DNA from: Nageia nagi
Lineage: Eukaryota; Plantae; Pinophyta
Direction of reading: 5' to 3'
Length of the DNA: 64,000 nucleotides
NCBI GenBank assembly: GCA_050084985.1
Contig: JBITNC010000001.1
Coordinates: forward strand, 49,414,001 to 49,478,000
Every line of letters starts with the position of its first letter. Positions within the stretch are counted from its first letter, which is position 1. The notes below the pieces were generated by a model, which saw nothing but the letters and a program-made list of their open reading frames with translations, had not been told where the DNA came from and ran no database searches. Of the stretch, positions 5,879 through 54,245 are shown in pieces. Position numbers and translations under genes: made by a program.

Positions 5879-5896
5879 TCCCTCGCAACGTTGCCA
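5879..5896 (-). promoter_or_regulatory. Primer-binding site, degenerate Athila-type (tRNA-Asp-like)
   Basis: Minus strand reads TTTT-TGGCAACGTTGCGAGGGA, similar to the Athila PBS TGGCGCCGTTGCCGGGGA. Confidence 0.65.
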
Positions 5897-5900
5897 AAAA

Positions 5901-20802: not shown

Positions 20803-21437
20803 CTTGTTCCTATCAAAGAGAACAACATAGTGTTAGGGGAGTCTTGGGAAGCTTGTGGCACTTTCTAGGCAAGCTAAGCGAATTTTTAAAAAAATTGGGA
20901 TTTTGGGCATTTTTTTCTCTAAGTGTGCCATCAACAAAAAATGTCAAGGTTTGCAATTTTGAAAGCCTTCTAGATGAGTTTAAGGTGACACAAAGGTAGC
21001 TGCCTCAAAGGGGAATGCCTTGGCAAAAATTTAGAATGCTTGGAGAATTTTCAAGTTTTTCTCAAAAAAAGTTGACTTTTTCAACAGGAAAAAGTGGTGA
21101 AATTTGGCAAAATTGGCGAATGGTGTCAGAATCAAGTTCTAACACCTTATATGGATGGGAAATGAATGGGGAAGATGTTTCAGACTTTGAAACGGCCAAA
21201 ACAGATTTCATAAACCATTTTTGGAGTTTTCTGAAATTGTTTTTGGATTTTTTTGAATTTTTTTCAAGAAATGAGGATTTTGAGCACTCAGATCTTGGAT
21301 CTTATGAATTTTTTTGTATTTTTTAGCTGAAAAGAAAAGTTGATCACATGGATAAAGGGTATCCAAAAAAGTGATCAAACTTGAAATATGAAAAAATAAA
21401 TTTTCAAGTGTTTGAGGGTTTGAAAATTGGGTTTTTG

Positions 21438-24400
21438 CAGTGTTCCACACGCCTGGGGAACGGGGATACGGGGGAACGCGGGAACGCGTATCCGGGAACG
21501 GCGGGGAAAAAATAGGGTCTTTTGGGGAACGGCAGGGAACGGCTAGGGAACGGCAAACATAATACTAGTAAAAATTATTAGATTTTTAAGAGTATCATTT
21601 CCAATTCATTTTTATTATGATGAATGATCATATTATCAAATTTAATTATGTATGATGTATACAAAATTACAAATTAAAAACACGGAATCGAAATTACTCA
21701 ATTAGAAATTCAACTTCATAGCCCATCAAATTAAAAAAGCCCAAGGGTAAACCACTAAACCGTAAATCTGATAACACAATCATAATGTCATAGGCCATAG
21801 CCCATAGGTCTGAAAGACTGAATGAAATACATAGATGGGACATCAGTATGTCGAATACGGAATACGAATAAGTGTTTGAATAACAAAATGAAAATGCCAA
21901 AATATTAAATAACCACTATAGTCTATGGATCTATAGGCTCATGTGCTAATGGTTGTGCATCCATATCCTCCTCATCTGTTGAGCTATCTGACGATATGCT
22001 CTCATCATCCAAATGAAGAGTATGCAATGGCAATCCAAACATCGACTCATCAGCCTCATCATCATCAGCCTCAAGCTGGCCTGCCTCCACTGGATCAATG
22101 TCCCAACGTGCAGCTGGACTAGCTCTATACTCTGGCGTAACTCTCTCACTAAGGCGAAGAGAGCTATGCACTGCAACTAACTTCTCTGCTCTACGAGAAG
22201 TAAGTCTATTCCTTCGCAGACTATGGATGAAGCCATAGGTAGACCAATTTCTCTCCGCAGCAGATGAACTACCCACCTACAAACAATCATTCAAATTAGA
22301 TTTTTCATTTTTGATTATGTGAGAAAGGAGCATAGTACAATACTTAATGGCATGGCAATGGCATCTACTAACCTGGGAAAGGAGCCTAATCGCAAGATGC
22401 TTCAAGTGTGGAGCATCATCTCCATATAGCTCCCACCATCCAATGGGATCAGTTTGGGCAATGGTAGCCCTATCCTCCTTGCACTCTTGCCTGCTAAAAC
22501 GAGGACCCTTAAGTCTCACAAATTTTACAAACTCCTCTCTAACTATACGACCATCCTCTCGTGAAAACATCTTGGCAAGGAAGTTCATGAACCCATCTTT
22601 CAACTCAACATCATCATTAGGTGCCATTTTCCCAATCTTTGGTGCATACCATTTTGGGTTCAACACATGGGCAGCCATATGGAGAGGGGTATTCATTTTA
22701 TTCCACCTACAAAAAGTTAAAAAAAATAATTTAATAAACTTAAAGACAAAAGTTAACAAACCAAATTGAAACTAAACTCTAAAGTTAACAATCAACATTT
22801 GTTTTTGTTACCTCTTCTCTATGATGGGTCTAATATGGCCTTCATAAAAAGAAGGATCTTTGGCATTAATTATTCTTTTCATTTCCCCAAGCATGCTATC
22901 GAAGGTCTCGTATATCTCTCCTAAATTAGGAGAATCCGTATCGGCATACCTTATCACTTCAAAAACTGGGGAAATAAAAGATACAATGTACCTACATTCA
23001 AAAAAAAAAAGAGTTAAAAAACTTAGAAAGTTAAATCTAATTGAACAATTACCTAATGACCAATCCAACTTGAAATTCAAACTACAATAGTGAAACTTTC
23101 AAACTTTGTTACCTGGCTTCAGTCCACCAATTCTCATCCAAGACTTTATCTCTAAGTCTTTTTCCCTCCTGTGTTTGAGATTCTGGCCACCTCTTCCATT
23201 CTACACAAACTACCATGGATTGTAGTGCCTCCTGCACCTCAATCATCCTTTGCAATAGGATGAAATAAGTGGCATATCTCGTATCTGCAGGTTTAAGAAA
23301 CTCCTTCTTTGAGAAGGAGCGAAAGAGGGCCAATGAGGTATGATGGTTGCAAATAAACATTTGCAAGTCTCTCGCTTCTGCAACAACATTCTTCACCCAA
23401 TCTATTTTCCCAATGTCCTTCAATGCATTATTCAATGCATGAACGCAACATGGGGTCCAAAAAATATGCCTGTAAGTGCCCTCTATCAATTTTCCTGCAC
23501 GCTTGCAAACAGGGGCTGCATCTGTAATTATCTGTACAAAAAAAATTAAAACGTTACAGTTTGCCGTTTGGCATTTTTACAACAAATGTCAAAAAATAAA
23601 TTAGAGAACTAAAAGTAAAGTTTAAAGTTTTAAAATTTAAACTTAGTAAAGTGATTACCTGGACAACATTGGAGGATCCAACCTCCTCAATAGCCTCCTT
23701 CAACAGGAGGAACTGGAACTCTGCATCCTTTTTTTTTCCCGAGCAATCAACAGCTCGAAGAAAATAAGGACCCTCTGAACATGACACCATTATATTGATG
23801 AGTGGACGTTGACGAATGTCAGTCCATCCATCCATAATAATGGAACATCCACTACGCACCCATGTAGCCTTCATCTCCGACATCATCAAACTGCATCTAC
23901 TATACTGCTTCTCCAAAATAGAAGTACGGAGTCTAGTCTCGCCAGGTAGTACATATGAAGGTCCAGCCAACCTTACTTCCTCAAATGCTGCCCTCAAGTA
24001 AGGTGAGCGTGCAAGATGAAAAGGCAAGGCATGTGCATAAAATAATCTTCCCACTGCATCATCAGCTCTCTCTTTCTGCTGCAAGTTTAATGCTTCAGCT
24101 ATATTTCCTCTTTTTTTGGAGGGGAATGTAGGACTTGGCAAGCTAGAAGAGAGTCCAATTTCTTTTTCTCTAACTGATGAGGAGGAGGAAACAATGGAGG
24201 CTTGGGTAGATTTAGGAATGGCCAGCCCATGATTCCTAAGGTAAGCCTCTTGTGCAAGCCTACTAGCTTCTGCAAACATAAATTTATTCATTTCTTTACA
24301 AACCCTCACCCCTGCCCCTTGTTTATCAGTCAAATGTGATTCAATCCTAGTATAACTCCCTTTAAATGTGGAGTTACAAATGTGACATTTATAAGTTCTT

Positions 24401-25320
24401 GCTCCCCCTTCAATCTTTTTCCCAGCATCTAGGTTTGTGACAAACTGTAACAGTGGTTTTTTAGGATTAAATGGGCCTTTAGCAAAATGTTTTAACATTG
24501 TGGATGGGCAATCAAAGATTGATGTGTTTTCTTGCTCATTTTCAACTCCCATTTGTGATGTTTCTACCTCATAGCTTTGATTTTCTTCCTCAATATCACT
24601 CATCTTGGACTGTTTTTTTTTTAAAAACTACAAGTAAAGTTTAAAATTTAAACTAAACAAGTAGAGAATGAGAAACAAAAAATTAAAAACCTTGGACTGT
24701 GCTAAGTAATTTTCTTCTCCTCCTTGGCTTTTCTCCACTACACTGCTGTGTTTCTCTTCCACCCTCCTTGCTCTTTCTCCTCACTGCTGTGTTTCTCTTC
24801 CTCCCTCCTTGCTCTTTCTCCTCACTGCTGTTTTTTTTCTTCTGTTTGCTGTCTTTCTCTTCCTCTTTGCTGTCTTTCTCCTCTACACAAAGACAAATGA
24901 TAACAAAATCACTTTTAGCCTTTTAGAGGAGCTTTTTAGGGTTAAGGGGGGTGCAAAGTTAGGTGGGACCCATGCTAGGAGGTTTAAAATTTTTTTTTTT
25001 TAAGTGAATCTTTTTTTTTTTTGAGCTTTAAGCTCTCAGCTGCGCGGGGAACGCCGGACGTCCCCGGGAACGGTCGGGGAACGGCGGCCGTTCCCTGGCC
25101 GTTCCCGGGGACGGCCAGCCGTTCCCTGGCCGTTCCCGATCAGGGGGACGGTCGGGGAACGTTCCCCCTTCCCCGGGAGCCGTCTCGGGAACGGCCCCCA
25201 GCCGTCCCCCAAAAGGGGAACGGCTAGGAAACGTTTCCCAAGGCGTTCCCGCGTTCCCAAAACGTGGGAACGTCGGGAACGGCTCCTCCAGGAGGGGGAA
25301 CGCGTCCCCGTGGAACACTG
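21438..25320 (-). mobile_element. hAT DNA transposon, full length (3883 bp)
   Basis: 11-bp TIR CAGTGTTCCAC. 8-bp TSD GGTTTTTG (21430-21437, 25321-25328). Subterminal GGGAACG repeats at both ends. Confidence 0.97.
21923..24603 (-). CDS. hAT transposase, 743 aa, 5 exons (BED finger, DUF659-type catalytic core, hAT dimerisation domain)
   Basis: Exons 24603-23659, 23531-23113, 22991-22812, 22706-22373 and 22276-21923. All introns are GT-AG, and the exons sum to 2232 nt in frame. Motifs CHIC..H, IMDGW, ITDAA, WTPCCVH, DTRYA, WWELYG, AERNWS. Confidence 0.93.
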
Positions 25321-25899
25321 GGTTTTTGTGAAAAAAATTTCAAAACTTGGAAAAAATGGAGTTCATGTGCATGGAGGATGCTTGGATTTCGAATTTTAAT
25401 GGAGTTTGGGTAAGTGGCCAAGATACTAAGTGTTTGAAAAATCCTCCAAGGCTGGAAAAATGGCTTCTTCTCTCACTTGGCTCTCAAATTCTCAAAAATT
25501 TGGGCAACATAAGGGTGCAAAAATGAGAGGTGAGCAAAATGGAGGGGGTATGGTCATATTTATAGACTCAAGGGGGTCAAAAGTGCCACATGTCACTTCC
25601 ATATCAACCCTAGATCAAAAAGCTTGCATTTTAGACTTATCATCCTCATAGCCAACATTGGAAAAGTGGAGGAAAATGGGGAAATAACCCAAAACCTGCG
25701 CCTAGGTGTGAAAGGAGCAGTTTTGGAGCAACATGGGGGGTCTTGGAAGCAAAGATGATGGCCTTGGAATGCTCTACAACCTCCATGCTTCAGATTTGGA
25801 TTTTGAATTTTGAAATTTTTTAAGGAAAATCCAAATTTTTTGAGTTTTCTCAGCCCTTAAATCCTTTTTTAATGCAAAAAGGTGGTTTTTGGGAGTTTG

Positions 25900-27250
25900 T
25901 GTGAGCCAAATTGCACAAATGATAAGTCAAAATGGTGTAGAATTACACCATCTACCTCATAGAAGTGAAAAATTGCAATCTTGAGCACTTTTAGGGACCA
26001 AGAAGGCTAGGTGCAGGTTTTAGGAAGTTTAGGCAAGTTTTGAAAAATGAAAAAATGGGGGATAACTTGCAAAACCAGCACCTACCTTTTTGGGCAGCAA
26101 AAATTAGTTTTTGAGCAAATTTGCAAGAGGCAAAGATGCTTGCATTTGGATTTTGAACCCTACCTTCCTTTCCAATTTTGCTTTTTTGGGATTTTTGAAA
26201 TTTCTTGGAAAATTTTGGTTGGTTGATCCAAATTTTGGGATTTTAAGGGAGTAGATCAACTTTTTTCCAAAAACTTAAAATATGAAAGAGATGCAAAATT
26301 GGATTTCCCATACTCCTAGGATCAAAAATTTTGATTTTTGAGCAAAAATGAGGGCTTGCAAGCTAGGTGCAAGTTTCAGGGGCTTTGGCATGTTTTTTGG
26401 AAATTTAGAAAATAGGGGAAACAAGTTAAAACTGCTGCCTAGCTTTTTGAGGAGGTAAACTTGATTTTTTTGCAACATTGCAAAAGGCAATGTTGATCTC
26501 CTTTGAATTTTGCATCCTACCTCACTTTCCTTTTTTGATTTGACAAATTTTGGAAAATTTTGAGAAAATTTGGAGCCCTCTCATTGGTCAATCAAAATTT
26601 GATAATTTGAGGAGGTAGATTTTATTTTTTTAGGAAAGTCAAATCATCAAACTTGTGTGGAATCCCATCCTATACCCCTTGAAGGTCAAAATTTTCAAAT
26701 TTTTTCAAATTTGGGGCACAAGAAAGGTAGGCGTAGGTTTTAGGATGTTTGGCGTGTTTTGAAAATTTTGAAAAATGACGAAAAACACCCAAAACCAGCA
26801 CCTAGCTCTAGGAGGGTCAAAATTTGCTCAATTTCGAAAATTCCAAGAGGAAAGGTGCCTAGTTTTTTATTTGCCACTCTACCTCACTCTTAAATTTTCA
26901 TGTTGACACTTTTGGGAATTTTGGAAATCTTGAAGCATTCTCATTGGATGCCTTTTTGCTCATTTTCCTATTTTTCTCACTTTCAATGGAGAAAAACTCA
27001 TCGAAATCACAAACTTAAAAGACAAATTTGATGTAGAATCGCGATGCCCAAACTCCTGAGCTCAAAAATTACCATTTCGGATCAATCTGAGCCTTCCAAT
27101 AGGTAGGGGCATGTTTTGAAGAGAATAGGCCATTTTTCAAAATTTATTGAGGGAAAACTTGCAAAACTCCCCTGACTTTTTAGAGGTCAAAAATCAAGTT
27201 TTTTTGAAATCTTCAAGAGTAGAGTGGCCTTAATTTGTCATTTGGCACCA
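25900..27250. repeat. Degenerate ~360-bp tandem units in giant-LTR copy 1
   Basis: TAGG(T/C)G..GTTT recurs at ~26008, 26363, 26728 and 27103. AAACCAGCACCTA-like motif recurs at ~26073, 26430, 26793 and 27164. Confidence 0.7.
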
Positions 27251-30200
27251 CACCTCTCTCTCGGATTTTCATTCCGAGCAATTTTGGAAAAAACTCAATT
27301 TTCGAACTCAAATCAAAGCTTTTCGGAGGTCAAAATGCTCATTTCTTGATCCTAGCCCACAAGGGATTTCAAACTTTTTTTCCTCATTCATCCTAGGCTA
27401 TATTGTACATTTCTAACCTTATCCATCTTTTATAAGCCCAAACGGTGCATTTCCAGCCATTTTCAGGCTCTAAGTATGAATTTCGACCATTTTTGGCTTT
27501 TACGAACATTTCCAAGCTCGAATGATAAAAAAATGATCTTTTCTAACATTTTTGATATTTTGAGCTCAAAGTCTATATTTTCGGACTCAAGATATGCAAA
27601 AATGCTCATTTCTAATCTTTCCGAGCATTTTTGAGCACTTTGAGCTCAAACTTGCATTTTTGGCCATTTTCAAGCTTTTCGAGTTCAAATCGTGCAAAAA
27701 CACACATTTTCAGCATAGTGACCACTTTCAGGCTCAAAATTGACCAAAAAGCACTTTTCCATGCTACTGACCATTTTCTAGCTCCCCGAGCTCAAAATTG
27801 ACAAAAATGCACTTTTTGGTTGTAGATGCCCTTTCTGAGCTCAATTTGTGCAAAAATGCACATTTTCTTCATCTTAACTATATCCACTACTCCCAAGCTC
27901 AAAGTCGATGAAAAATGCACTTTTTTCATCTTGGCGCCTTTGTTGCTCAACTTTGCCAAAACGACACCTTTTCTGCCCTGATGGCCATTCACTTAAAACT
28001 CCACTGTCTGGTTGTTGTTGCAATCCAAAACTCCATCCTTTGAGACACTGCTCGAAATCGAGCCTTGACTTGGCCACTAGCTGAGCTGAACTGTTTCCAT
28101 GACATTGAAGCATGCTTATGCATTGTTTGATCAATTCGCCATTCTAGGTGTCCATATCGGTCGTAAGTTGATCATGCCTAGGCAATGTTGCTCATTGTCG
28201 TTTGTAAAAATTAGGTCCCCAAAATGCTGCATCTTGGGGTGTGTTGTGCGGGCACAATAGGTACTTACAATTTCTTGTAGTACTTACTTTCTTTGTCAAT
28301 CTTTTTTCCAAAAGACTTCAAATAACTCTCAAATGAAATTGCTTGTCTAAATTCATTGCTCTTTGCTTGGTATTGTATGAAGTAGGCGTCCATCCCATCG
28401 CTTGGAATTGCATTCCTTTCTTGCTCTTGCAAAAACATAGGTGATGGCCAAGTGTCAACCTTCTTTATGACTTTATTCTCTTGTTCATGCATGATTGACT
28501 TTGATACTTCTTAATGGAGTTGACAAAACTCATCTATTTTGTTAACCATGTTAGAAAATTGACCATGGACTTTCAACTGTTCTTGTGGAATAGCCATATC
28601 TCCAAAACCCTCACAAGTTGGCAGGATTTAAAGCTCTGATACCACTATAATGTACCTTTCTAAAACATGCACAACTTCTTAACACGATTCTGCATTCGTT
28701 CACAAATTACGGCACAATAGTAAATGCTCATTAACCATTTGTTGGGAAAGAAATCTTTCCTCTTACTTGGCGATCACCAAAGACAATCAAGATCGAAAAG
28801 CAACCCAATATTTAGGTGAGAACGTGTTACTGAACACCTCTTGTAAGGAATCATACCCCAAGGTTTCTATCAGGAGCTCATCTCGTTAATACGAGCTTAA
28901 CTTGTGTAGGTCTTGTTTGGGAATCAGCTGAGTGGTGTAGTAGAGGTAATAACTATTAACTCACATTTTTTATAGGGACTGAGGTGTCTATCTTGCAATA
29001 GTTCGAAAGTTGTTAAAATTTTAAAGAAAGTGTAAAATAAAGAAAATAAAAGTAAGAATTGATGGATTGAACTTTCAAGAACTCAATTCTAGACTACCAA
29101 GATCTCTTGTAAGCTCACTCAAACAACAATTTACTCAAAGCATATCAATCTCAAAAATTGACACAAGATATAAAGTGGTTCCTCCAACTAGGAGTACATC
29201 CACTCTCTAAGATCTTTCTTCATTCACAAAGATAACTCTCTTACAAAACCTTTTTCTACATCTCCTAATCACTATCTTAGAGCATAACTTTGCTTTACAA
29301 TTTGGTGAGTGATCACAAAGAGAGGCCTTCTATTTATAGGCCAAAATCCCCTTTTAACCATTGTACAAAGGCATGACATGTTACACCTTTTTACTCAAGG
29401 GGCATGCTCATGAGATGGAATGTAAGAAAAGTTACATTATCATATTCACTTAAATACTTAAGGTATCTAGGGATATCTTTAAGTATTAGTGAATTTACAA
29501 AGAGGAACATTATAAAATCTTACAATAATGCATTATACATTCCAACACTCCCCCTTAATGCAATATTGGGATAAAGTGAAGAAGAGAAAAGAAAGAGAGA
29601 GAGAGTTCTCCTTCATACAAATACAACTAGAGATGGAAACTTTTACATATTTGTGAAGTAAGAAATATCTTAGTTTGAAACTCACTACTTAACCATTCTA
29701 ACAAAAGGTTTACAATACAATCATTAACCATAACTGGTTTCAATATAAATAAAGTAGTCATCCAACTAGAAGTTGACATGATCCCTTCATGAGCCTGCAC
29801 ACTTGAAGTAATCTGCAAGCTACAGGCAACTCCAACAATAAGACCAATTAAATGAAACATATACACATTCATATCAACAAGATAAATGAATCAAATAATG
29901 CCATCAGAAATTGATCAATGGTGCACTATAAGTCATCATGAAGATGCCAAGCCAATACTCATAGTTACTTGCTATATACAAAACATGTGTTGATTATCAT
30001 TACAAAATAGAGCATAAAATGTACATACAAGTTTCTCACACATAGATAACTGAACAGTGCCAAAAAATACATATGGGTTCCTCACATATGGATAACTCAA
30101 TAGTGCAAAAGATGGCCAATAAAATGCTCAAAACATTTGTACAATAAGTTTCTCATGCAAAGCGAACTTACCATGAAGGTGTACAACAAAATCAACATTA

Positions 30201-37000: not shown

Positions 37001-39081
37001 TAATCTAAATTGGGAATTGGGAAATTGGGATGATCATCCTAATTTTTCTGTTGCTTTTACTATTGCTTGTGATGCTTTAGGTGCGGGAGTTGGAGCTGTA
37101 CTTATGCAACAAGGATGCCCCATGGCCTATGAGAGTAGAAAGCTCTAAAATGTGGAGAAAACTTTCAGCATCTACAATTAAGAGATACTAGCTATCATGC
37201 ATGCCTTGACCAAATTCAAGCAATACTTGGTGTGTGGCAAGTTTGTGTTCAAAACTGATCATAATAGTTTGAAATATTTCTTGGGGAAAGCTGAACTAAA
37301 TGAAAGGCAGCAAAAATGGGTAACAAAGTTGAAATCATATGATTTTGAAATTGAATTTGTAAAGGGTAAGAAGAATTCAGCTGCTGATGCACTTTCTAGG
37401 CATCCTACTTTTCATTCTCTTTCCATTATTTTTATTGATTGGAAAGTGAAAATTATGGCTGAATATGTGAAGAATGATTTTTGTTCTAAACTAATAAATG
37501 GGCAAGTTGAAGATGATAGGTTCAGCCATAAAGGACTGATTTTTTGCAAAGGAAGAGTGTTTTTAGTACCTGAATCAAAGCTGAAATAAGCTTTAATTAC
37601 AGCCATGCATGATGCTACACTTGTATGCCATCCAGGTTTCTACAAGACTTACAAACAAGTTAGAGAAAGATTCTATTGGAAAGGTTTGAAAAGGATGTTT
37701 TCTTGCATGTTTAATAATGTGTTATTTGCCAAGAAAACAAGGGAGAACATAAATTTTCAGTTGGTTTACTTCAGCCACTTCCTATTCCCAATCAAAAATG
37801 GGAAAGTATATGTCGGGATGCTTTTCTTTCTCGAGCAGGACACTCTAAATATCTTGCACAAAACTTAGGAGATCCCAAGCAACATAGTTGGGAATGCGTT
37901 ACCAATTCCCCCAGTTGAAAAGGATTGTGTACCTCCAAGGCTCTTGTTGAAACACCCTACCCAGTGACCCCAAGTTGTGATGTTGTAAGGTATGTTCGCC
38001 AGGTGTATTTTCTGAATAGGGATAGATAAATAAAAGTGCAGTATCCCTCTTTGGAATCAGCCTCAATGGAATGGAATGAGAGGTATGTAATCTGTTAACC
38101 AATGATGTTTTATTCTTTGATGTATAGAGTTTATTCGGAATTTTTGTATGTGTACTTAATGATCATCTTTGGTATGAAAGCATAAATGCAATACTGTAAA
38201 AGATGGACAACACCTTGGAGAAAGAAAGAATACTTGGTTGGATATGAGGTTGAGGTTCACTAACGGGAAATTGTCTAAGAGTTAATCTCTTTCGAATCAA
38301 TTAAGGACTCTTCATCCAATTCATCCAACCTTGCAAGCAAACAACTTCACGTTCAAAATGCTTCAAAGAAGAGCGGGGAGGAATGCCAATTGTCGGTTCT
38401 CTACGAATAGGACCGATTCAATTGAATGAAAATGGAAGGTCTCAAAGTGAGTGGATCATGGTTTTGGATGAAAGACCTAACAAGATGTCATATAAGTAGA
38501 AACTGACATAAAATACCCAATCAACTTGCATGTTAAGGACCAAGCAACAAACATAAGTAGGCTTCAAGCACTTTTTAATGTTTTTCAAAGATAACTTCCC
38601 TAAAACTCGAGAGTTTTCAAAGGAATAAAATGAAAGTACACAAACCCACTATGAGTATCCTCAAAAAATCAATCCATAACATCAATATGAAAAGTGTCAA
38701 ACTCAAGTCTTTGCATTAACCACTTTGTATTTTCTTTGTAAAAGAGTTACATAAAAGTTTTCACAATTTTCTCCTTTTACAAAAAATTTGAACTTGCTCT
38801 CAAAATTTTAATTCCTTGAAAAGTTCCAAACTTGCAATCTCCATAAAAGTGACCCCATGGGGTCTATTTATAGAATTTCTAGGGTTCCCAAGTGTTGCTC
38901 TAATTCTATAAAAAAAATATTAAAATATTACATAGATGCCTCCTATGACTAAATCAGCTGCCTTTTGGTGCTGTACTTGCTAGGCTGACTAATCATGAGA
39001 GCAAGGTTAGTCGACTTTTGGTGCTCAACTTTCCTGGCTGACTAATTTATAAAATTTTTAAAATTTTTGAAAATAAAAAAA

Positions 39082-42000
39082 TTATGGTGGCTGATTTGCA
39101 GTTTGTACATGTGATGCGATGGTGGCCTCAAAGTTTGCGCCCATGAAGGTTTCTCTATTCTTGACTCCAATGTTGAGAATTTTCATTATCCCTTCATTGG
39201 CCAATAGATACGCAGTGATGGTTTTTGAAGTCTTCTTCATCTCGCTACACCATACTGCCATGTTGCTACCATATTTGAGCTGCTTGCCAGATTTGAGAAC
39301 ATTGATGTATTCAGTCTCGAGGTAAGTGGTAATCATCAAGTGGACCTCATCTATTACTATAGTGTAATCTTTGCTGCATCCATCTTCCTCAATCAATCTT
39401 AGATCAAACTGGTGTTCTGCTAGCTGTTTCCTCATGTCTACCTTAAAATTTGCTCGGACTTGGATGAAATCCTGACACTTTGAAATAGCATAGAATAGCC
39501 AATCATATTGGTAAAAGAATTGATGACAGTATTCTAGTAGTGATGGCATGCCAACAATCTTTCTTCTTAGCTCATGCATCACTTGATAATTATTGCCCCA
39601 CCTAGCAATTAGTTCATGGATCCTACCCTGTACGACGAACAATCCACTCTCTTCGATGAAAAAAATAGTTATTCCTAGGAATAACTCCTAAATGGATTCC
39701 TTGGTTTCTTTTATCCACTCTTGTTTGATCGCTTGAATCTCAGTATTCAAGGAAATTTGCTTCCTAATGTCTTCCACTATCAAGTTAGCAGCTTCGATAT
39801 CAACGGTCAACTTCTTCTTCTCGGCCTATTCTCTTTTCAGCTCCCTTAGCTCTACCTTCTATGATGTGTTCTCCTCTGTCAACGTTGCAACATTAGAAAC
39901 TATTGCATGTTGCCTGCCCAAAGTTTCGATTGCTTTACATAGCTCTTCTCGTGTTTCCACCACTAGTGCAAAGTCCCCAACAACATTTGTTTTTCTCTCT
40001 GCAGCAACAGTGTCAGTGACGATGGAGTTGTCCTTCATCAAGATGTAAGTGGCTATATGCTCAAATTCATTCTCTGAATCCTGATCGGTTTCAAGGTCAA
40101 CATGGGCTTCAGATGGGTGATATGCTCTTAAATTTTCAAGAGTGCCGCCATGTCGAAGTTGTAACCTGGTTTAGGACCAGCAACTATAGTCACTTGTCTC
40201 TCAGTGTTCCCTTGGTGTTCATCCTCTCTCCTTTTCTTCCTTTGGTCTTCATTTTCACCTTTATCCTCTTCATTTCCTCCATCCCCTCTTGATGAAGAAG
40301 TTATTCCCTTGGACATTGAAGTCCTTCTTGGAGCAAGTGGTGAGGTTTTCTTTGAGGTGGAGGTGTTTTTCTTGGTTTTCAAGGTGTAGAAGCCTGTGTA
40401 GAAGTGGGTTTTGTTGCTTGTGCAGGTTCTTCCATAGTAGGAGGATCTATGGTCGGTATCTCCTTGACTGATGAATCTAATTCATTTGATTCATCGCTTG
40501 AGATATAAGGTATTTTGGATATCTGATCATTTTCTAAATGCTCTCTCAAGAGGTCTCCTTCGTCAATCTCATATTCATCCTCGTTGTCACTAGAAGGAGG
40601 AGCAGGAGAACTAAGGCCAAAATGATATAATTGTCCATCTCGAGATGGACCTCTAGGAGGGACTTCCACTAGCTTCTTCAAGCATTTGTACAGGTGTGAA
40701 GTGCTACCAGTCTCTTTAGTTCTCTTTATCTCTTGTAATAATCTTTGTATGGTCTGATTAATAGTTTGCCCTAGTTGAACAATGAGTGTTGCATATTGAC
40801 CAGATTGCCCCTATGTCAAACTCATGGAAGGTGAAATTAGTGGTGGTTCATATGGAATCGGGGAATTCTTTTTAAGGAATATCGAAGGATGTATCTTGGC
40901 TACTGCATTCTCCTCTTGCAGATCTCTCTTCTTCTTGGTTATGGTCTACATGAGCTTCTCTTCTACTGCCAATTCCATGTTTATCTTGTTAATTTGCTTT
41001 GTATCATTTACATTTCTGTACCTTCCTAGCTTTCCTAAGGACTTGAGGGGGTAATCGGTTTGCCAGGTTTTCTTGAAAAATATGTTGATTACACTCTCGA
41101 GGTCATAGTACTCTACCGCCTATTCTACTGTGAAGCCGTAGTATGCCAATTCCGTCTTCATTGTTTTGACTTGATGCCAGGACGTGCATTTGTACTCCCC
41201 TATGCGGATGGGTAATTTGCAAGTGGTGGTACCTTTCTTACACTAGACTTTCTCTTGCAGGTATGACAAGTGTCTGCAAAGTTCCATCAGGATGAACTGG
41301 TCACTTGCGTAACGAGGAAGTCTATAAGGTGGTTAAATTGACCCATAGACCCTAATATATGTGGCATCTATTTCTTCAAGATAGAAATCTGCATGTCCTC
41401 GAAGAGCTTGGATTGTCTTTGATATTCTAGTCATATTAGCGATCCCCTTTATCTCTTCATATATTCAACATTCAAATCCATCATTCATCATTTTGAATTC
41501 ATCCCATCAGTTTTCTAATAGGAATCAAGGGTAACTCCGCCATACTGACATCTCTAGGTCAAATAGGTACTTGGTATCTGCAATGGTAGATCTTCTGTTC
41601 TTGCCATGTAAGAGCAGGAATACCAAATAAGAGCTTATGTAAAATCTTTTTGTTTCTACAAGTTTGGACAATTGTTGGGCCATGCAATCACTAATCACCT
41701 TACTCCATCTGATACCTTTGCCTCTGTTAATATGATGTATGAAGCCCACAAACTCCTTTCTGAATTGTTGGTCATTCTCTTGCCTTGTAATTCTACACAG
41801 CATGCTGATAATGGTAGAGATTGTAAGATAAAAGTCTATCCTCCTTGGTTGGCTTAAGGCCTTTGCCTTGTAATCTTTGCACTTGTCAACCGACCAATCT
41901 CTTATTAAGTTCCCTGATTTTGTCAGGTTGTTAAAGAATTTGACAGAATCCATCATACCAAATATGATTCCCTTATTGCTCCAAGCAAAAGCGCTCTCTA

Positions 42001-42370
42001 TTCCTTCCATAGTGAAGTCTAATATTTTTGTCCCTTCAATGTTGAGGAGGATTCTTTCCTTCTTGTCGTAGTATCTGGCTACCTCAAGGCACAATTATGG
42101 AAATGGAGTGGTATATGGGATCATGGAGGCCTCAACGATTCTGGACTGAGCAAATGTGTTGTTGAGCAATCATTCATATGGGATCTTGGCCATCTTTTCC
42201 AATGTCTTGACGGGGTCAGTGTGTGCCCAATTTGTATCTATGATTTGTCCAAGACCGTCTACTATCACAGTTGTAGGGAAGGTAGCCTTCCCTCTTTTAT
42301 CCAAGGTGATCTCGCTAGTCTTCATGAGCCTCTCCATCTGGAGCTCCTTGTTTTTCTTAGCAATACTCAT
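39082..42370 (-). pseudogene. ~1095-codon LTR-borne ORF of unknown function (disrupted), copy 2
   Basis: Pieces 42170-42370, 41525-42094, 40379-40681, 40128-40382, 39859-40041 and 39082-39642 are homologous to copy 1 (e.g. GKGIRW..VISD..AQ.L....K.FY..SYLVFLL). Confidence 0.85.
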
Positions 42371-43249
42371 CGTTTATGCCCTGTGGAACACAAAAAGGTG
42401 TTAGAAGTGATACTGGATATGTTTAGAGCAATTTTGGAGTGAAAAAGAGATAGACAAAATTTTGGCCTATTTTTGGGTTTTTGAGAGGCTGTGGATTTTC
42501 GAGAATTTTGAAGTTCCTTAGAAGTGGGAAACAAGTACATGGGGTGTTGGAAAATAAATCTAGGAGGCTTGTGAACAAGTCTTAAAGAAAAATATCAAGT
42601 TTTCGATGTCTGAATTAACTCGCTGTTTTTTTAGCTCATGTATTCATTTTTTGATAGGTTCTATCAACTTCGAAGTTTGGAAAGATGGGGATGCAAAGTG
42701 GGTTTTCAAGCTTCGTTCGGGGGAAGTGAATGATGAAAGCTTCTCTCCTATATGAGGTCTATCACTTTGGTATTCACTTCGAAGTTTGGATCTTTCAAAA
42801 TTTGGAAGTTTTTAGGTCTTGAAAAAGCATTTTTTGTGTTTTTTCACATTTTTTTTTGAAGGCTTGAAAATGGTGAAAATTGCCAAAAGATAGGGGTGGT
42901 CTGAAATTTGGAAAAAATTTAAAAAATGGATTTGATCTAATGGGTGGATAGAGGATGAGATTCTAAGATTCTTGAGAAATTTTGAAAAGGTTTGGAATTA
43001 TTTTGGATCTTGTGAGCAAATTCCAAGTTTTGAGCAAGTTTGTGAGGTTTTGTAAGGATTTTGCTCAAAAATGGGTGCATTGAAGCTCAAGGAGAGTGTT
43101 GTGGAGCAAATGAGAGGCTTAAGAGGGTATTTATAAAGTTTTTGTGCCTTTTGCATGCTCCTTAGTGGGTTTTTGATCTAAAAAGTGCTCTAAGGGTGCA
43201 TTTTGCATAGTTTTTAAGCTTTTAGAGCCTTCAAACACTCCATAGGGTT

Positions 43250-44500
43250 GAAATTCAGCGCCTAGCTTTTGGAGGCACTTCTTTTGGTCAAAATGAAAAA
43301 TTTCAAAGTTTAAATGTGATTCAAATCACTTCCTTCACCCACCTATGTGCCCAAAATCAAATTTTGATGAGTTTTGGGGCTTTTTCCTTGCATCTAGGCG
43401 CCATTTTTCACTTTTTTGGGTTCTCCAATAGCTTGCAAACCTGTGCTTGGTTTTTTGAGGCATTTCTAATGCTCAAATTCGAAAATTTGCTGACCTAAAC
43501 ATGCTTAGAATGCGCTTTTCCATGCAACCATGTGAAAAAATTTAAGTTTTTGAAAATTTTTTGATTTCTCCTCATGCTAGGTGCCATTTTTCATCTCATT
43601 GGAATTAGAAAATTTAGCAAACCAGCGCCTAGGTTTTTGGGCCACTTCCTTTTCTCAAAATCAAAAAATGCAAGCTTAAATGTGCTCAAAATCATGTTTT
43701 CCTTGTGTTTGACCCCTTAGACTTGGATTTTGAGCAAAATTTGTAAAATATTCTTATCTTAGGCGCTAGAAATCAACCCATTGGATTTCCAATGGCATGG
43801 AAACCTCCACCTAGCCTTTAGGTGCCTTAAAATTGCTCAAAATTTGAATTTTGTAGTTCTAAATGTCCTCAAAATGGTGTTTATGACCCAATGAACACCT
43901 TGGAATGGATTTTGATGCATTTTTCACTTATCCCTCCATGTTAGGTGCTGATTTTCAGCTCATTGAATTTAGAAAATTATGGAAAACTGCACCTGCCCTT
44001 TTAGGGTCAAAACTTGCCCAAATTTGAAATCTTCAAGACTTAAATGTGCTAGAAATCACATTTTACACCCAATGGACCCCTCAAACTTGAGTTTTGACCA
44101 AAATTTATCAAATGTTTTAATTATAGGTGCCATTTTTCATCCCATTGGGTTTCCATAGCTCTCAAAACCTACACCTAGCCTTTAGAGTGCTCAAATGTGC
44201 TCAAAATCAAAAAATTTGAGACCTAAATATGTTTACAATCATGTTGTCCTTGGTCCCAAGCACTTAACTTGATTTTTGGTAAAAAAACATTCCATCTTGT
44301 CATCTTAGGTGCCATTTTTCACTCCATTGGAATTGGAAAACTCATTCATGCATTTAGATTCCATTTACGATGTATTTTCATTTTTCCTCCACTTCATAGG
44401 CACCAAAATGCACTTCTATGGATTTCCCATAGGCTTGAAAAACTATGCCTAGCCTTAAAGTGCTTTGACTTGGTCAAAATAAAAAATTTTGAGTCTTAAG
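43250..44500. repeat. ~182-bp tandem array, ~7 units
   Basis: TAGG(C/T)GC anchor at ~43395, 43578, 43760, 43942, 44124 and 44306. Confidence 0.85.
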
Positions 44501-47500
44501 CATGATAGAATTCACCTTATCTCTTCGAATACGCTCTTAAACTCAAATTCCGATGCCATTTGCATTTATCTCTTAGAAACAAGCACCATTTTCTGCTTAC
44601 TTGGATCTTCATACCTTAGAAAAACGTATCTTAAGCTAAGGGTACTCAGTCTTGCACTTTCGATCCATTCTGGACTCAATCTATGCATTTCTGGCCACTC
44701 TTGGTGTTTTTGAGCTCAAACTCGATCAAAACGCCTTTTTCGGCACCTTTGAGCTCAAACTTTGCATTTTCGATGATTTTCGAGCTCAAATGGTGCAAAA
44801 ATGATCATTTTCACCTTTTCGAGCGTAAAGTTGTCATTTTCCATCATTTCCAAGCTCAAGCATTCAAGTCTACCCATTTTCGGCATTTTCGAGCCCTAAG
44901 TGTGAAAAAGCGACCTTTTCCAGCATTTCTGGCCATTCTAGGTTCAACTCATCACTTTTGGTCATTTCCAAGCTTTCCGAACTCAAATCATGCAAAAATG
45001 CACATTTTCACCATACTGACCATTTATGGGCTCAAATGTGACCAAAATGCGCCTTTCTACCTTGCCCTTTTCCAGCTTTCTGGGGTCAACTTTGACAAAA
45101 ACGTCAGTTTTTGCCATCCTTGTCATTTCAAGGCACCCGAACTCAAAACTGACAAAAATGCTCATTTTTGCCACCTTGGCACCTATGAGCTGAATTCCTA
45201 CAAAAACATGCTTTTTCTGTCAACTTGACACTCTTGCACTAAAATGCTGCAAAAATGCACCTTTTTCTTCTCTGTTGGCTGCTTGGTGAAAAACTCCCTT
45301 CCTGGTCACTGTCGTGATCCAAAACTACATCCTGCTTGATGTTACTTGAAACCGAGCCGTTAACGGTCGTTGGATGCGCTGAACTACCTTGGTGCCTCTG
45401 GGGGTGCTTATGTGCACTGCTTTATCACTTGGCCACTCTGACTCTGCATGCTGGCCGTCGTTTAGTCATCTTTAGGCAAAGTCATCCATTGCTTTCAAAA
45501 AAAATTTGGGTCACCAAAATGCTGCATTTGGGGGTGTGTTGTGCGGGCACAACAGTATCCACATGGATTTCATTACTGGTTTACCCAAGGTATACATGAA
45601 GGATTGCATATTTGTTGTTATTAATAGATTGACAACATTTGCTCATTTCTATGCCATTTCAACAACTTATACAGCCATACAAGTTGCTAATTTGTTTTTT
45701 AAAGAAGTTTTCAGATTGCATGGTTTGCCTAAATCCATTATGAGTGATCGGGACAGCAGATTTTTGAGCATTTTTGGTAGAAATTGTTTAAGCTATATGG
45801 TACTAAATTGACTCCTAGTACTAGCTACCATCCCCAAACTGATGGGCAAACTGAAATTGTTAACAAATGGCTTGAAGGATATTTGAGACATTATGTTTTA
45901 GGTCAACAAAATGCATGGGTTAAATGGCTGCACCTTGGTGAATATTGCTACAATTCTACTTATCATATTTCCATAAAAATGTCTCCATTCAAGGCACTTT
46001 ATGGTTATGATGCCTCACACTTTTCAGATTTGAATTTTGATGATTCAAGGGGTCAAAAAGCTAGAGACGTTGCATCAGAAAATCAAGATATTCTTAGTGC
46101 TTTGAAGGACAATATTCTTATGGCACAAAAGCAGCAAAAGAAGTATGCAGATCAATGGTGTAGCGAGCCCTCATTTGAGGTGGGTGACTTGGTTTATGTT
46201 AGGTTGTAACCCTACAAACAGTCCACATTGAAGAAGAGTGGAGCAGAGAAGCTAAAACCCAAGTTCTATGAGCCTTACAAGGTGATTAGTAAGGTTGGAC
46301 AGGTTGCATATGCTTTGGAACTTCCAAGTGAGTAAGATACACAATGTTTTTCATGTTTCTTGCTTGAAAAAGGCTCTAGGCCAACATATTCAGCCATCTT
46401 CAGATTTGCCACCCCTTGATGATGAAGGAAAGCTCATTCTTGAACTTGAATTGATCCTTGAGACAAGGGAGAGAAAGTTTAGGAGGAGGATTATCAAAGA
46501 ATATCTTGTGAAGTGAAAAGACTTGCCTATGGAGGATGCTACTTGGGAAGGTGCAAAAATTTTAGATGCTCTAGCTTTAACTTTGCTTGAGGACAAACAA
46601 TTTGAGGAGGGTGGACTTGTAATGTCCCAAAAATAAATATTTTTGTAAATGTCTCCTACACTTAATTATAAAAGTGAAAAAAGGGGTTCATGTGACTAGG
46701 AGACATAACTTGAGTTATGTTTTATGTTTTTATGTTGTAATAGGACATTTTAAGTGATTTTAGGGTTGGGAGATGTCAACTCCAAATTAGAACCTCATCA
46801 TATAAAAAGGAAGTGAGCATCCCATTTTGGGCATGTTATGTTGATATCATAATTGAATATTAAAACCCTAGAGTTTCCATGAGTTGAGATTGCAAGTCTT
46901 GCTCATTCCCATAGTGCATTGGAGGTGCATGGTTGGGGTCTTAGCAATATCATTGAAGGTGTTGTTGCCCTAAAATATCAAAAATACAAAAAGAGGCATA
47001 TGTGAGTGGTTCATGGCATTTTTGGTGAAGGGATTCACTCAGTTTGGAAAGTTCGTGGCATTTTTGGGAGCATTTGTGACATGTGTTTCAGACCTGTTGG
47101 CAGCCCCAAACCCTATGCTTGTATTTGGGGTCAATTTTGGGAGTTTTTGCATCAGTTCAGCCCTTGGGGTCAGTTCGTCCCACTTGTGGGAGTTTGTATC
47201 TACATTTTTGAGTTCCTTGGGGACTCCATTTGTCCATTCCAGCTGTTGTATTGGTTTGGCAATATTTAATATATGATACTAGCTGATTCACCTCGTACTT
47301 GTGTTATTTTATGAGCAATGTCTGAGTTGTTTTTATTGCTACAATGTATCTCTGCATTTTTATGTTGAGGGTTTGCTAGAGAAAAAAAAATATATAAAAG
47401 GAACATCACATAAACAATCATCATTTCCATAACTTGCAAAAAACATTTAAGTAAAACATTCATAAATTGTCCCCCCCTTTTTACTTAAAAGGTCTTAAGT

Positions 47501-48802: not shown

Positions 48803-48850
<48 letters not shown>
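48803..48850. repeat. (AT)n microsatellite in the copia leader
   Basis: About 24 AT units read directly. Confidence 0.95.
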
Positions 48851-48854
<4 letters not shown>

Positions 48855-50849
48855 AAAAAATACAACTTTTTTTTTAACAAGCTTAAGAAAAAAAAGCCTT
48901 ATAAGGTGCAAAAAATACTAAGCAATTTTGTAAAAAAAATGCTACTAACATAAGAGGTTAGTATAAATAGGAAAAAAAATGCATTATATTGCTATTTTGA
49001 TCATATTTTGCAAAAAAACAAAAACTAACACATCTCACAAAATATCCTCAAAAATAGTCCAAAAAAAATAATAATAAAGAAAGGAAGGATGTTATACCTT
49101 AACAATTCTTTTACCTCAACAAGAATGTAGATGAACCTCCAAGATGAAGAGTCTCCAAGAATGTGAAAAGGATCCTCCAAGCTGCTTTGATACCAAATGA
49201 AGGGATTGAACCTTAAAGAACTCAATCCTAGACTACCAAGATCTCTTGTAAACTCATTCAAACAACAATTTACTCAAAGCATATCAACCTAACAAATTGA
49301 CACAAGATATAAAGTGGGTCCTCCAACTAGGAGTACATCCACTATCTAAGATCTTTCTTCATTCACAAAGATAACTTTGTTACAAAACCTCTTTCTACAT
49401 ATCTTAATCACTATCCTAGAGCATAACTTTGCTTTACAATTTGGTGAGTGATCACAAAGAGGGGGCCTTCTATTTATTGGCCAAAATCCTCCTTTGAATC
49501 ACCCTTTTAACCATTGTACAAAGGCATGACATGCTTCACCCTTTTACCCAAGGGGCATGCTTATGAGATGGAATGTAGGACAAGTTACATTATCATATTC
49601 ACTTAAATACTTAAGGTATCTAGGGATACCTTTAAGTATTAGTCAATTTATAAAGAGGAACATTGCAAAATCTTACAATAATGCATTATACATTTCAACA
49701 AGAATGAGGCCGGATACTAGATAGGCTTTTTCTTTCTCTCGGATAGGTTAAAAAATCTTGTTCAATTCAATCAAGTCTTTGAAACGAATGATTGTTGTCC
49801 AATCATTCCGAAGATGAGCGAAAAGCAAAGCTGATTGTCAATACTCTGCAAGCAGGACCAATGCAATCAAATGGACTAAGTGCGAGTGGGGGTGAATGGT
49901 TTTGAACAAGAGGTCTAGAAAGATGTCTTAAGAGAAAAGTCGATTCAAAATACAAGCATTTAACAAGCAAGCAATGGATTAGCAACAATTCAAGACAATT
50001 CAAACATTTTGAAAAATTTCCAACAAAGTCTCCTAAAATTCGAAAGTTTTCAAAGAGAAGGCACAAAAATATTTGAATTACAAAAATTGCTCTTAAGAGA
50101 TCAATCCACCACTGCAATAGATGAAACCACACTTTGAATCAATATGTAATCACTTGTATTATGTTTGCAAAAGAGTTATGCATGAGTACATCAATTTGCT
50201 CCTTGATTACAAAAATTTTCAGTTTTCATGAAAATTAGCCTTTTCTTGGATTAAAACATTTTAAGTAAAAATGAGACCCCCTATGGTCTATTTATAGACT
50301 TTTAGAGCTCACTTTTGGTATTTCTCTAACCCTAATCTAGGCTAATTAAAATGCAAATTGAAATGAAATTACATTTCAAGTGATAGGAGAATATGTTCTT
50401 CCTTTTAACCACTTTTAGTGTATATACATGAAAATTGATCCTTTTACAAAGGATCTTGTGGATCTAGAGCTGACTTTGGATCTTCTTCACCATCTTTGAG
50501 TACCCTTTTCACTGAAATATGGATTCCACCATTGATTACAGCGATCTTGGCAAGCTTGAGGATTTTAGTGAAGAGTTTTTTAAAAATGGATTTTTTTGGT
50601 CTAAAATCCAAAAAGATAGGGGGGTTTGAAATTTATAAAAATTTTAAAAAGTGCCCAGAAAAATCTTATATGGCCATGAATGGATTGGGCATGGATATTG
50701 GAGGTGTTTAAGAATGATTTGAAGGTTTTTGGAACTTGGAAGCAAGATTTGGGTTTCTGAGGTATTTTGGAAAGCTTAACTGACCAAAAAATGGTGTTCA
50801 AAGTGCTTTTGGTGCTCAAATATGCTTTGGTGCTCAAAAGTTCTCAAAG

Positions 50850-52200
50850 GCATGCAAATCCCCTCCTACACTTTTGAGCACTCAAACTTGCTCAAATCTG
50901 AAATTTCCAAGGTCTAAATGTGCTCAAAATGTGCCTTTCCATGCACCCATATGCTCAAAATCGAATTTTGCCCAAAATTTTGTCTTTCTCCATGACACTA
51001 GGCACCATTTTTTATCTCTATGGATCATCAAACAAACCCAAACCTGCGCCTAGGTTTTTGGGCCTCCAAACTTGCTCAAAAATGAAATTTTCAAGTTTAA
51101 ATGAGTTCAAAATGGGGTCCTTTGTTCATCCCCATGCTTGGAATTCAATTTTGACCAAAATTTGGTTTTTTTCCCATGAAGGTAGGTGCCAAAACTCACT
51201 TCTTTGGATGCCCCAATGGCATGGAAATCAGCGCCTACGAATTTGGGCCCTTTCCCTTGATCAAAATCAAAAATTTCAAAATTTAATCCTTCTTAAAATG
51301 GGCCCCTTCATGTATTGATGTGCTCAAACTTGAATTTGGATGAAAATTTAATTTTCCTTCTCGATTTAGGTGCTAATTTTCACCCCATTGGATTGTCTAT
51401 AGACATGAAAAGTGCACCCTAGCATTTGGCCCATTTCCCTTGCTCAAACCCAAAATTTTGAAGTGTTAAACCTTGTTAAAATGCCCTTTTCCCTCCAATG
51501 ATGTGCTTGGAATTGATTTTCTTGGGCTTTTTCATTTTCCTCTTGATATATGTGCCAAATTTCATCTCATTGGATCATCCATTAGCTTGGAAAAGTGCGC
51601 CCACTCTTTTGGGCATTAAATTTGCTTAAAATGCAAAAATTTGAAGTTTAATGTGTCTTGGAATGAGGTTTTCCATGCATCTATGCCTTCAAAATCAATT
51701 TTTGGGCCCATACCATTTTGTCTTTTGAATCTAGGTGCCAAAACAAACTTGTTTGGATTTCCATAGGCTTGGAAATGTGCGCCTAGCCTTTGGAGGTGGA
51801 AAATTTGACCAAAATAAAAAATTTGAAGTATTAATGTGGCTTAGAATGGTCCTTTCCATCAATCTATGAGCTCTAAGTTGATTTTTGACAAAAATCCATT
51901 TTTCCTCCTCATGTTAGGTGCTAGAAATTACCCCATTGGATTTCCATAAGCTTGGAAATGTGCGCCTAAACATTAGGAGCTCAAAACTTGTTCAAAATTG
52001 AAAATTTGAAGACCTAAAGTGCCTTAGAATGGGGCTTTTGATGTAAACAAATCATCACCTTCGAATTTTGAGACAAATCCCATTTCTTTCTTGGTAGCTA
52101 AGCACCAAAATTCACTCCATTGGATTTCCCAAAGGGGTGCAAAACCCCTCCTAGATGCCATTTATGCATGCTTGGTCGAAATCCAAAATTTCCAAGCCTA
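50850..52200. repeat. ~183-bp tandem array, ~7 units
   Basis: Anchor at ~50999, 51183, 51367, 51549, 51732, 51915 and 52099. Confidence 0.85.
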
Positions 52201-54245
52201 AACATGTCTAGAATGACATCCTCTATTGGCCTGTGCTCTTTGATTTCAACTCTGGCAAACTTTGAAAAACGCCCCATCTCCATTGGCCTCATTCTAAACC
52301 CAAAAATCCGTGCTCTGATGAAATCTCTCAGATCCTAGCTCCTTGGCTACAAAACAGGTGATTGGATACTCTGATACTCTTCAGGGTCTTCATCATATTA
52401 TCTCAAATTTCAATGAATTGCCCCCCCTAATATCATGTTTGCACTCCTCAAAATGAACTATCACCAAAAGACAATATCAAGAAAATGCACCTCATTGCCT
52501 TTGCAAAAATAGGGTCCCCAAAATCTTAACATGCGCTTAAGACTGAATCATGACAATAGTAACCAGATCTGATATAATGCTCATATAACATGTAAAAATG
52601 ATCAAACTAGTGCACAATTGCATATTTGTAACATAACATAAATATTTCTCCAAAATACCCTAATCCGCATACATTCCCATGCACAACAAGTGATAACAAT
52701 ACAACAGTAATAAAGGAGCATTCATTCACATTCGAAGAGCAATATGAGAGCCAAATATTATTAATAATAACCAAGAATAAGTAAAAGGTTGTAACAAGCC
52801 TATAACAAGTTCTTGGGCGATGCCCTAGACATCAAGAATACATAACAAGACTACCAATGGTTGGCGCAAGCTTCCAAGTAGCAAGAATGGTTGAAGCAAA
52901 TCTCAAGATGGCTCCCAAGGTCTAGCACTAGGGCTAGGATGGTCTCCAAGGTTGGTACAATCTCTACAAGTGTAGGTAAGTGTGAATATGCCACTTCTAG
53001 GCTAGGGAGAATCCCTAGTCCTTAGAAGAAAAAGAGGGGAGCATCCCCAACTCCAAGATGATCCAAGATCAAATGCCAAATTATGATGTCTTCAAATGAG
53101 GTGCTCACTTCCTTTTTATAGTGAGATAGGAGAAGTCCAATTCTTATTTGTGGTTGGCTAACCCAACCTAGAAATATAAATAACTCCTAATTGACAAATG
53201 ACTCTTCCTAAGCTAGACGACGGGCAATTAAGGAATAATATATTTACTTATTACAAAACATTGCCCACTTTTATTATAAAATAATCAAAGATTCATAATC
53301 TAAATAGAATTCACCCCTAATACCCCTCATAGGGCCAGACCATTAATTTTAAGTGTCACAAACAACACTAAATACAATATTAATAAAGTGGGTCCTGCGC
53401 ACACGATAGTAGAAACTGGTTCCAGGGGCGAATCTTCAAAAGTCCATATCTTCTCCGTTTCTTAATGGAACCATGTCATGTGACCTGTCAAAACGATTGG
53501 CACGAGATTCTCTATCCATTCCAAAAGACAAATCAGCGATCCATGGATTGTGATGAAAGTTATGCCTTCAACAAGGTTTCTCAAAATTGGGGACATTATA
53601 GAAGCATTCTAATGATTGGAAAGAAAAATATAAACTTTGGATCTTTATACATTGCATGATAAATGAAAGAAGCCCAGAACATCAATGAAGAAAACACATA
53701 AGACCTTTTGATGGCTTGTAGATGAGTTGGATGATAATTATGAAAAGCCTGGTTACTAACTGTTTTTAAAATTAACACCATCGCACATGACTGCTCCATG
53801 AGAAATTCATTGACTGATCAGTTGGGACTAACTTGGAAGAATGAACTAGCATTATAAGAATAGGACAGACTGGATCATCATAGATCATGTTAGCATATGA
53901 GCTCCTAAGTGTATCAACTGATTAAGTCTGTATGGTAACTAATCTGTAAAACTAATTGTATGAAATCTATTATATTATGCATAACACATGCCTAACACCA
54001 GGTATGGATTCTGATACTGTCCATAAACAACCAGCCGTTGATTCTTCTAAAATTGGCGCTCTATTTTAGATTTTTACAATAAATCAGAATTATTTAAAAC
54101 AAATTACAACTCCAACCTGCCCTCAAAGAATATGAAGATGACGCAGTTAATCAATAAACCTTACCATAATACAGTTACATAGGACGGAATCGTATTCTAA
54201 ACTGAATGCTAAATACAAGAATGGAGTTCAAGCTCATTAAGTTAC

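Follow-up and report, generated by a model that had tools for sequence, protein, structure and literature searches.

What kind of mobile element carries integration signals at both ends, a long gene between them and no terminal repeats? The question arises in a 64,000-nucleotide stretch of the conifer Nageia nagi (contig JBITNC010000001.1, positions 49,414,001 to 49,478,000 of the forward strand; hereafter the window), where two units of about 8 kb, A and B, each hold the remains of a gene of some 1,090 codons. We conclude that A and B are likely solo long terminal repeats (LTRs) of a gymnosperm non-chromovirus (Tat/Athila-type) gypsy element, whose U3 region has likely absorbed an accessory gene with a predicted VANC21/plant-mobile-domain (PMD) fold and a proposed sequence-specific anti-silencing function. 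We put the probability of this reading at roughly 0.6.

Two units bounded by integration signals

Unit A (37811..45554, minus strand) is a putative giant solo LTR of 7,744 bp lying in the integrase of a gypsy element, and unit B (16337..28259, minus strand) lies in a gag-like open reading frame (ORF); both were found where the initial annotation had placed them. B is 11.9 kb long because a hAT transposon is nested inside it; without the hAT it measures about 8.03 kb and is collinear with A. On the plus strand, A begins with TGTCGGGATG and ends with GGCACAACA, giving TG..CA termini, and B begins with TGTTGGGATG and ends with GGCACAATA, giving TG..TA, so that the TG..CA ends ascribed to both units hold for A and for only one end of B. 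Of the 5-bp target-site duplications (TSDs) claimed for the pair, that of B is perfect (GGTAC/GGTAC, 5/5, chance 0.0013) and that of A matches at only 4/5 positions (GTATA/GTATC, chance 0.02). The 5' terminus of A (45537..45554, minus strand) is an 18-bp hairpin-forming palindrome with a TG start, TGTTG...CAACA, which is also present in a third window copy, C (11840-11857), and in a metagenome locus, L002 (2582-2599); in B it has TA.

Each unit cleanly interrupts a frame of another element, as had been described. Integrase_H2C2 is matched directly ahead of A (E 1.4e-9) and the frame resumes past it, inside a gypsy element whose own LTRs (34976-35739 and 46618-47387) differ by a Kimura two-parameter distance (K2P) of 0.056; the gag-like ORF split by B likewise resumes on the far side (Ty3_capsid E 0.002, below the cut-off). 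Self-comparison found neither terminal direct repeats nor long inverted repeats in A or B, in agreement with the initial annotation, which had also called the units free of transposase; that part fails for B, which holds the hAT. Since both ends carry integration signals, one TSD surrounds each unit and nothing inside is duplicated, the units are most simply explained if two identical long repeats recombined, an origin that we regard as probable.

The order of parts resembles U3-R-U5

Read on the minus strand, A and B share the order that had been proposed for them: terminus, array of ~182-bp repeats, a first TATA box (TATA1), pyrimidine tract with AG, gene, second TATA box (TATA2) and an end of ~1.05 kb. 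Distances from the 5' end are similar in A and B, respectively, for TATA1 (2.4 and 2.7 kb), the ATG (3.2 and 3.6 kb), the stop (6.5 and 6.8 kb) and TATA2 (6.7 and 7.0 kb), and TATA2 lies 1,062 bp from the 3' end in A and 1,033 bp in B. TATA1, the putative promoter of the accessory gene (43128..43135, minus strand), occupies the same place in B (25564) and in L002, and a putative splice acceptor lies 10 nt before the ATG of A (42381..42400, minus strand) and 7 nt before that of B. TATA2 (CTATAAATAG; 38865..38872, minus strand), a putative LTR promoter at the U3/R border, is found also in B (17369) and in a fourth window copy, D (50296).

The R/U5-like end of A (37811..38864, minus strand) is the block most conserved between the units. 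Its counterpart in B, together with TATA2, spans 16337..17369 on the same strand, and K2P between A and B is 0.13-0.14 in the last kilobase at the 3' end versus 0.30 at the 5' end. Positions of the promoter and R/U5 motifs, a candidate U3-R-U5 order, appear to be kept in A, B and D, and TATA2 and the poly(A)/T-rich end are oriented the same way as the gene. Because R/U5 would be marked out by TATA2, by an A-rich signal that follows it and by a T-rich terminus, the array, TATA1 and the gene would fall in U3. No Rfam family was found in A. By eye, purine-rich stretches lie between the stop and TATA2 on the minus strand (17540-17552 in B, 38930-38945 in A); they could be relics of an older polypurine tract (PPT) predating growth of the LTR.

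A decayed gene with a history of purifying selection

The gene of A lies at 39082..42370 (minus strand, ~1,096 codons), and that of B (17551..20802, minus strand, ~1,083 codons) is 48%, 47% and 37% identical to it in amino acids over three blocks. The ~3.25-kb ORF of the initial annotation is not open: we found 14 stops in the 1,019 codons read and two frameshifts in A, and 9 stops in 1,060 codons and three frameshifts in B. Relative to other copies, the changes are mostly transitions, with A/T in the window where the others have G/C, as expected from methylation-driven decay.

Codon comparison indicates that the gene was under strong purifying selection before it decayed. Identity between A and B at the three codon positions of the N-terminal block is 0.65/0.71/0.38, and over 738 aligned codon pairs the proportion of synonymous differences (pS) is 0.79, which is saturated, versus 0.36 for nonsynonymous differences (pN); in a shifted-frame control, pS was 0.43/0.37 and pN 0.46/0.48. 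The bootstrap upper bound on the ratio of nonsynonymous to synonymous rates (dN/dS) is 0.15 for these pairs, which come from local protein alignments and are biased to conserved parts, and is thus not the value of ~1 against which the initial annotation had set its proposal.

The predicted product of A has an N-terminal globular domain of ~450 amino acids, a low-complexity middle with a basic patch and a coiled-coil-like helical C-terminus. HMMER returned 194 relatives at E <= 0.001; among 20 looked up, two clusters carried a species name, both being hypothetical proteins of Taxus chinensis, which makes a gymnosperm host probable. One relative is an unbroken protein of 1,010 amino acids laid out in the same way, from a globular N-domain through a low-complexity middle to a coiled coil, although its C-terminal part could not be aligned to that of B. 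Other searches gave little: a deep-profile word search produced three matches only, a weak search among longer proteins revealed no relatives, and viral contigs had none with three DNA patterns and three protein queries. ESM Atlas held no usable match for residues 1-270 of protein P0002 or for the C-terminal ORF of B. The one genome-contig match to the family was rejected as a chance match to a bacterial contig of 60% GC. We also saw no conserved transmembrane helix of the env type in A, B or proteins P0029 and P0070, where the top 19-residue hydropathy was 0.95-1.71 at no shared position.

A predicted VANC21-like domain and an adjacent array

The N-terminal ~450-residue domain is predicted, from a model of a relative, to adopt the VANC21/PMD fold. 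VANC21 (PDB 9LNK) was the sole structural match of this model, with 6% identity in the structural alignment and no detectable sequence similarity. Foldseek searches of the PDB and BFVD returned nothing at E <= 0.001, and neither VIA re-examination of Foldseek's 144 chains nor a sequence-profile search of the PDB added anything. No Pfam family was assigned to the gene: profiles of PF10536, Transposase_32, Athila ORF1 and Transposase_28 were not matched by five gene segments, 12 alignment members, 25 of the 150 listed relatives or P0160. The VANC/PMD link suggested in the initial annotation has a candidate structural match to a model on its side and lacks the matches to PF10536, Transposase_32 or Athila ORF1. 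DUF7405 was a candidate in 3 of the 12 alignment members (best E 1.6e-4).

VANC proteins bind short motifs that cluster within tandem repeats of non-coding sequence, and they cause loss of methylation (PMC5735166, PMC10398659). Upstream of TATA1, A, C and D carry decayed arrays of 182-183-bp repeats; the array of B is more diverged. By self-comparison and word count, the array of A (43151..44620, minus strand) consists of about eight decayed units with a ~182-bp period, and that of B (25601..27300, minus strand) has a period of ~357-364 bp. The word TAGGYGY occurs at 6.8 per kb in the array of A, 4.1-6.8 per kb across arrays and 0.27 per kb elsewhere in the window, with the proviso that it was chosen after looking and that repeats enrich their own words.

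A and B belong to a high-copy family

Besides the two units first noted, the window holds two partial relatives. Copy C (9518..11857, minus strand) retains the 5' 2.3 kb, with an intact 5' terminus, the array and part of the leader; its gene and 3' end were not found. Copy D (49706..52527, minus strand) has a damaged 5' end, the array, a short leader, TATA2 and R/U5, the last homologous to that of A (score 235 versus a shuffle maximum of 38), and no accessory gene was found in it. Retention of array, TATA2 and R/U5 without the gene means that a short ORF-less form exists. D is split by a copia element (29060-49700, TSD AGAAT, LTR K2P 0.069), and its own ends and TSD are uncertain; a probable 3' remainder (28740..29054, minus strand, end uncertain) gave weak scores of 39 and 49 versus shuffle maxima of 36 and 43 and stops 82 bp before the tRNA-Met primer-binding site (PBS) of another element. 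We considered whether C and D could be the two LTRs of the gag-like element that lies between C and D and rejected this as unproven: no PPT precedes C, C lacks TATA2 and U5, and D apparently sits inside that element's own LTR.

Contigs from four public runs covered all 30 bins of A, and those of three of the four runs contained empty-site joints across its insertion site. Depth differences along A were set aside, because contig depth is no guide to the ranking of parts. Contigs leaving exactly at 37811 into unlike flanks numbered 16, 5, 9 and 10 per run (40/439; flank agreement 0.40-0.52), from which it follows that the U5-like end is a true boundary of many insertions. In metagenomes, the terminus pattern located two loci, L001 and L002, both the same rearranged copy: L002 2582-4241 (equal to L001) is a relative of A (78-87%, depending on the block) that has lost the array and carries the C-terminal part of the gene in inverted orientation behind TATA1.

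No PPT was seen in the upstream flank of A, B, C or L002, and no canonical PBS follows A or B or is common to the 40 junction contigs, a contig test that is blind to collapsed PBS junctions. Their absence is expected of solo LTRs. Neither the four window copies, L001/L002 nor the 40 junction contigs contained a direct-repeat pair around PBS-gag-pol-PPT, and no pol was found attached to family copies.

A proposed gene-bearing LTR and its alternatives

The proposal that an LTR has absorbed an accessory gene is supported in part: the termini with their TSDs, the succession of TATA, poly(A) and U5-like features and the position of the most conserved block at the 3' end fit a solo LTR, and no shared PBS or PPT was found. 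We think it probable that the architecture is a gene-bearing LTR of ~8 kb with a U3 of ~6.7 kb. Plus-strand synthesis would start upstream of the array, giving this U3, and TATA2 would start the genomic RNA, leaving the last ~1.05 kb as R/U5. The U3 gene module would be copied to both LTRs in each round, and it would not be lost when the two recombine, an event that repeats of this length would favour. Transcription from TATA1 would yield a spliced mRNA with its 3' end at the poly(A) site that the LTR itself supplies downstream of TATA2.

More tentatively, at somewhat under even odds, we propose that the encoded protein binds the array and protects the LTR promoters from methylation. It would oligomerise through its coiled coil and recognise a short word that recurs in the 182-bp array next to TATA1, keeping these promoters methylation-free, and it would also serve D and other ORF-less copies in trans. 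In its fullest form the proposal describes a conifer family with the longest LTR known to us (~8 kb), built around a VANC-like gene for anti-silencing together with the array that it targets, whose provirus holds two modules and whose solo LTR is a complete trans-protecting cassette, ORF-less members included; this we hold to be rather doubtful.

Four alternatives deserve weighing. The chief competitor to the proposed function is another accessory role: within the same architecture, the protein may be an ordinary PMD-coiled-coil factor acting in read-through, nuclear import or the particle, with the array a by-product. This is a real possibility, if a lesser one, given that extra ORFs (eORFs) of the PMD, Transposase_28 and Athila ORF1 types beside tandem arrays are common in Tat/Athila without proven function, that MAIN, which shares the fold, is described as taking part in silencing, not opposing it, and that the array is kept in ORF-less copies. 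Against it stand the packing of gene, promoter and motif-rich array into one duplicated module and the fact that the sole solved structure matched is a DNA-bound anti-silencing factor.

Less likely, the 8-kb unit is the whole mobile element, either a non-autonomous giant resembling terminal-repeat retrotransposons in miniature (TRIMs) or large retrotransposon derivatives (LARDs), or one moved in trans without its own gag-pol. None of the four window copies has an internal region attached, nor has the metagenome locus, and all of them sit inside other elements; the flanks at the 40 junction contigs are unlike one another, and the 18-bp palindrome is an unusual 5' end. Moreover, conifers are said to retain few solo LTRs (PMC13477047), which leaves room for a unit that has no internal region. 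By the established mechanism, however, LTR-type cDNA is impossible without terminal repeats, the junction test would miss collapsed PBS contigs, and very long repeats would be expected to recombine frequently.

Read on the plus strand, A and B could be what deletion or recombination left of a TatIII-like element that had ordinary LTRs and, internally, an antisense eORF and a tandem array. We consider this improbable, even though gymnosperm TatIII elements carry an antisense 3' PMD eORF (18% of 39 elements) and Retand has both arrays and antisense ORFs in the interval from pol to the 3' LTR. Such an origin would require A and B, which are saturated at synonymous sites, each to have undergone two matching deletions; the gene, TATA2 and the poly(A)/T-rich end share one orientation; and D, which has no gene, keeps both outer parts in the same order. 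Finally, a non-autonomous VANDAL-like (non-TIR Mutator) DNA transposon with a VANC-like gene would suit the predicted VANC21 fold, the tandem array and the lack of long terminal inverted repeats (TIRs), but is very hard to reconcile with TG..CA ends, 5-bp TSDs where Mutator elements make ~9-bp ones, the absence of a MuDR transposase and an LTR-like 3' kilobase.

Neighbouring elements in the window

The hAT nested in B (21438-25320, minus strand) lies between TATA1 and the ATG and has 11-bp TIRs, an 8-bp TSD, a DUF659 match (E 1.4e-32) and weak matches to the hAT dimerisation domain. It is multi-exon with long open exons, it has lost less of its CpG than the sequence around it (0.54 vs 0.31), and it looks younger than unit B. 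Positions 28640-53400 form a four-level nest in which an LTR with a tRNA-Met PBS contains D, which contains the copia element (K2P 0.069), then the gypsy element (K2P 0.056) and finally A. At 1-6900 (minus strand) lies an Athila-like gypsy element with gag, reverse transcriptase and RNase H, a 24-bp repeat at 6914-7178 and, near 5890, what we take to be a tRNA-Asp-like PBS. Decayed gag/protease-like and unassigned frames at 11858-13700 and 14484-16336 (minus strand) belong to a non-autonomous gypsy-like element, and a GC-rich patch covers 14430-14620. Simple and tandem repeats comprise (AT)24 at 48803-48850, a 60-bp coding repeat at 60239-60393 and a 63-bp array at 63064-63418; possible host-gene exons were noted by eye at 54200-55900 (minus strand).

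Relation to known elements

What the extra ORFs of plant LTR retrotransposons do has been named as an open question (PMC7264820), and a predicted fold link to DNA-bound VANC21 together with a candidate target array in one unit would make it directly testable here. If our reading is true, a solo LTR with a 3.3-kb gene in 8 kb is a gene-bearing remnant, not an inert scar, and the end repeat is itself a self-protecting cassette. The family would then amount to a VANC-type system with structural support that lies in a retrotransposon and beyond the eudicots, and it would give an orphan gymnosperm eORF family a function. Pipelines with a 15-kb inter-LTR limit (PMC13477047) would miss such elements, biasing counts of intact elements and solo LTRs in conifers.

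Published LTR lengths reach about 5 kb (PMC6317226) and 6.5 kb in Ogre (PMC6431247), and few LTRs exceed 3 kb (PMC3485330). The classification of plant eORFs separates those on the 5' side of the element from those on the 3' side (PMC6317226), descriptions place them in the internal region (PMC7264820, PMC11963269), and the available portions of PMC11728184, PMC13468544 and PMC11539532 hold nothing on a gene-in-LTR architecture. We found no plant LTR with a protein gene inside in the literature searched, whose scope lay outside Repbase, subscription journals, the REXdb element table and Additional files 1 and 3 of PMC6317226.

Retroviruses have genes in or overlapping U3, MMTV sag and HIV nef, which, like the A/B gene as we read it, are coding sequence within the LTR that is copied to both ends; they are far shorter and spliced from the 5' LTR promoter, whereas A and B have a ~1,090-codon gene and a second TATA box inside U3. 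Like A and B as we read them, Tat-clade elements with PMD and coiled-coil eORFs (TatIII, Ogre; PMC4408406, PMC6317226) have a 5-bp TSD, very long LTRs and tandem arrays, and they encode an accessory protein in which a coiled coil comes after a globular domain. Their eORFs are described either ahead of gag or in the stretch from pol to the 3' LTR, whereas the A/B gene is inside an 8-kb unit with an integration end on each side and, in contrast to the Tat-clade PMD eORFs, has no PF10536 match. The antisense additional ORF (aORF) of Retand/Grande (PMC7264820, PMC11963269) is similarly an accessory gene with its own promoter by tandem arrays, but it is internal, and Retand LTRs measure 315-1194 bp compared with the ~8-kb unit. 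VANC21 of Arabidopsis VANDAL21 (PMC5735166, PMC10398659) is carried by a Mutator-like DNA transposon and VANC is described as dicot-specific, whereas A and B have 5-bp TSDs and no MuDR transposase and lie in conifer DNA; the solved VANC21 structure is of a DNA-bound anti-silencing factor, while binding of the array by the A/B protein is a prediction from the modelled fold. The Cassandra TRIMs (bioRxiv 10.1101/2023.07.14.548913) are plant retroelements that likewise hold a captured gene-derived module within their LTRs; theirs is a short non-coding piece of 5S rDNA, and that of A and B is a protein gene.
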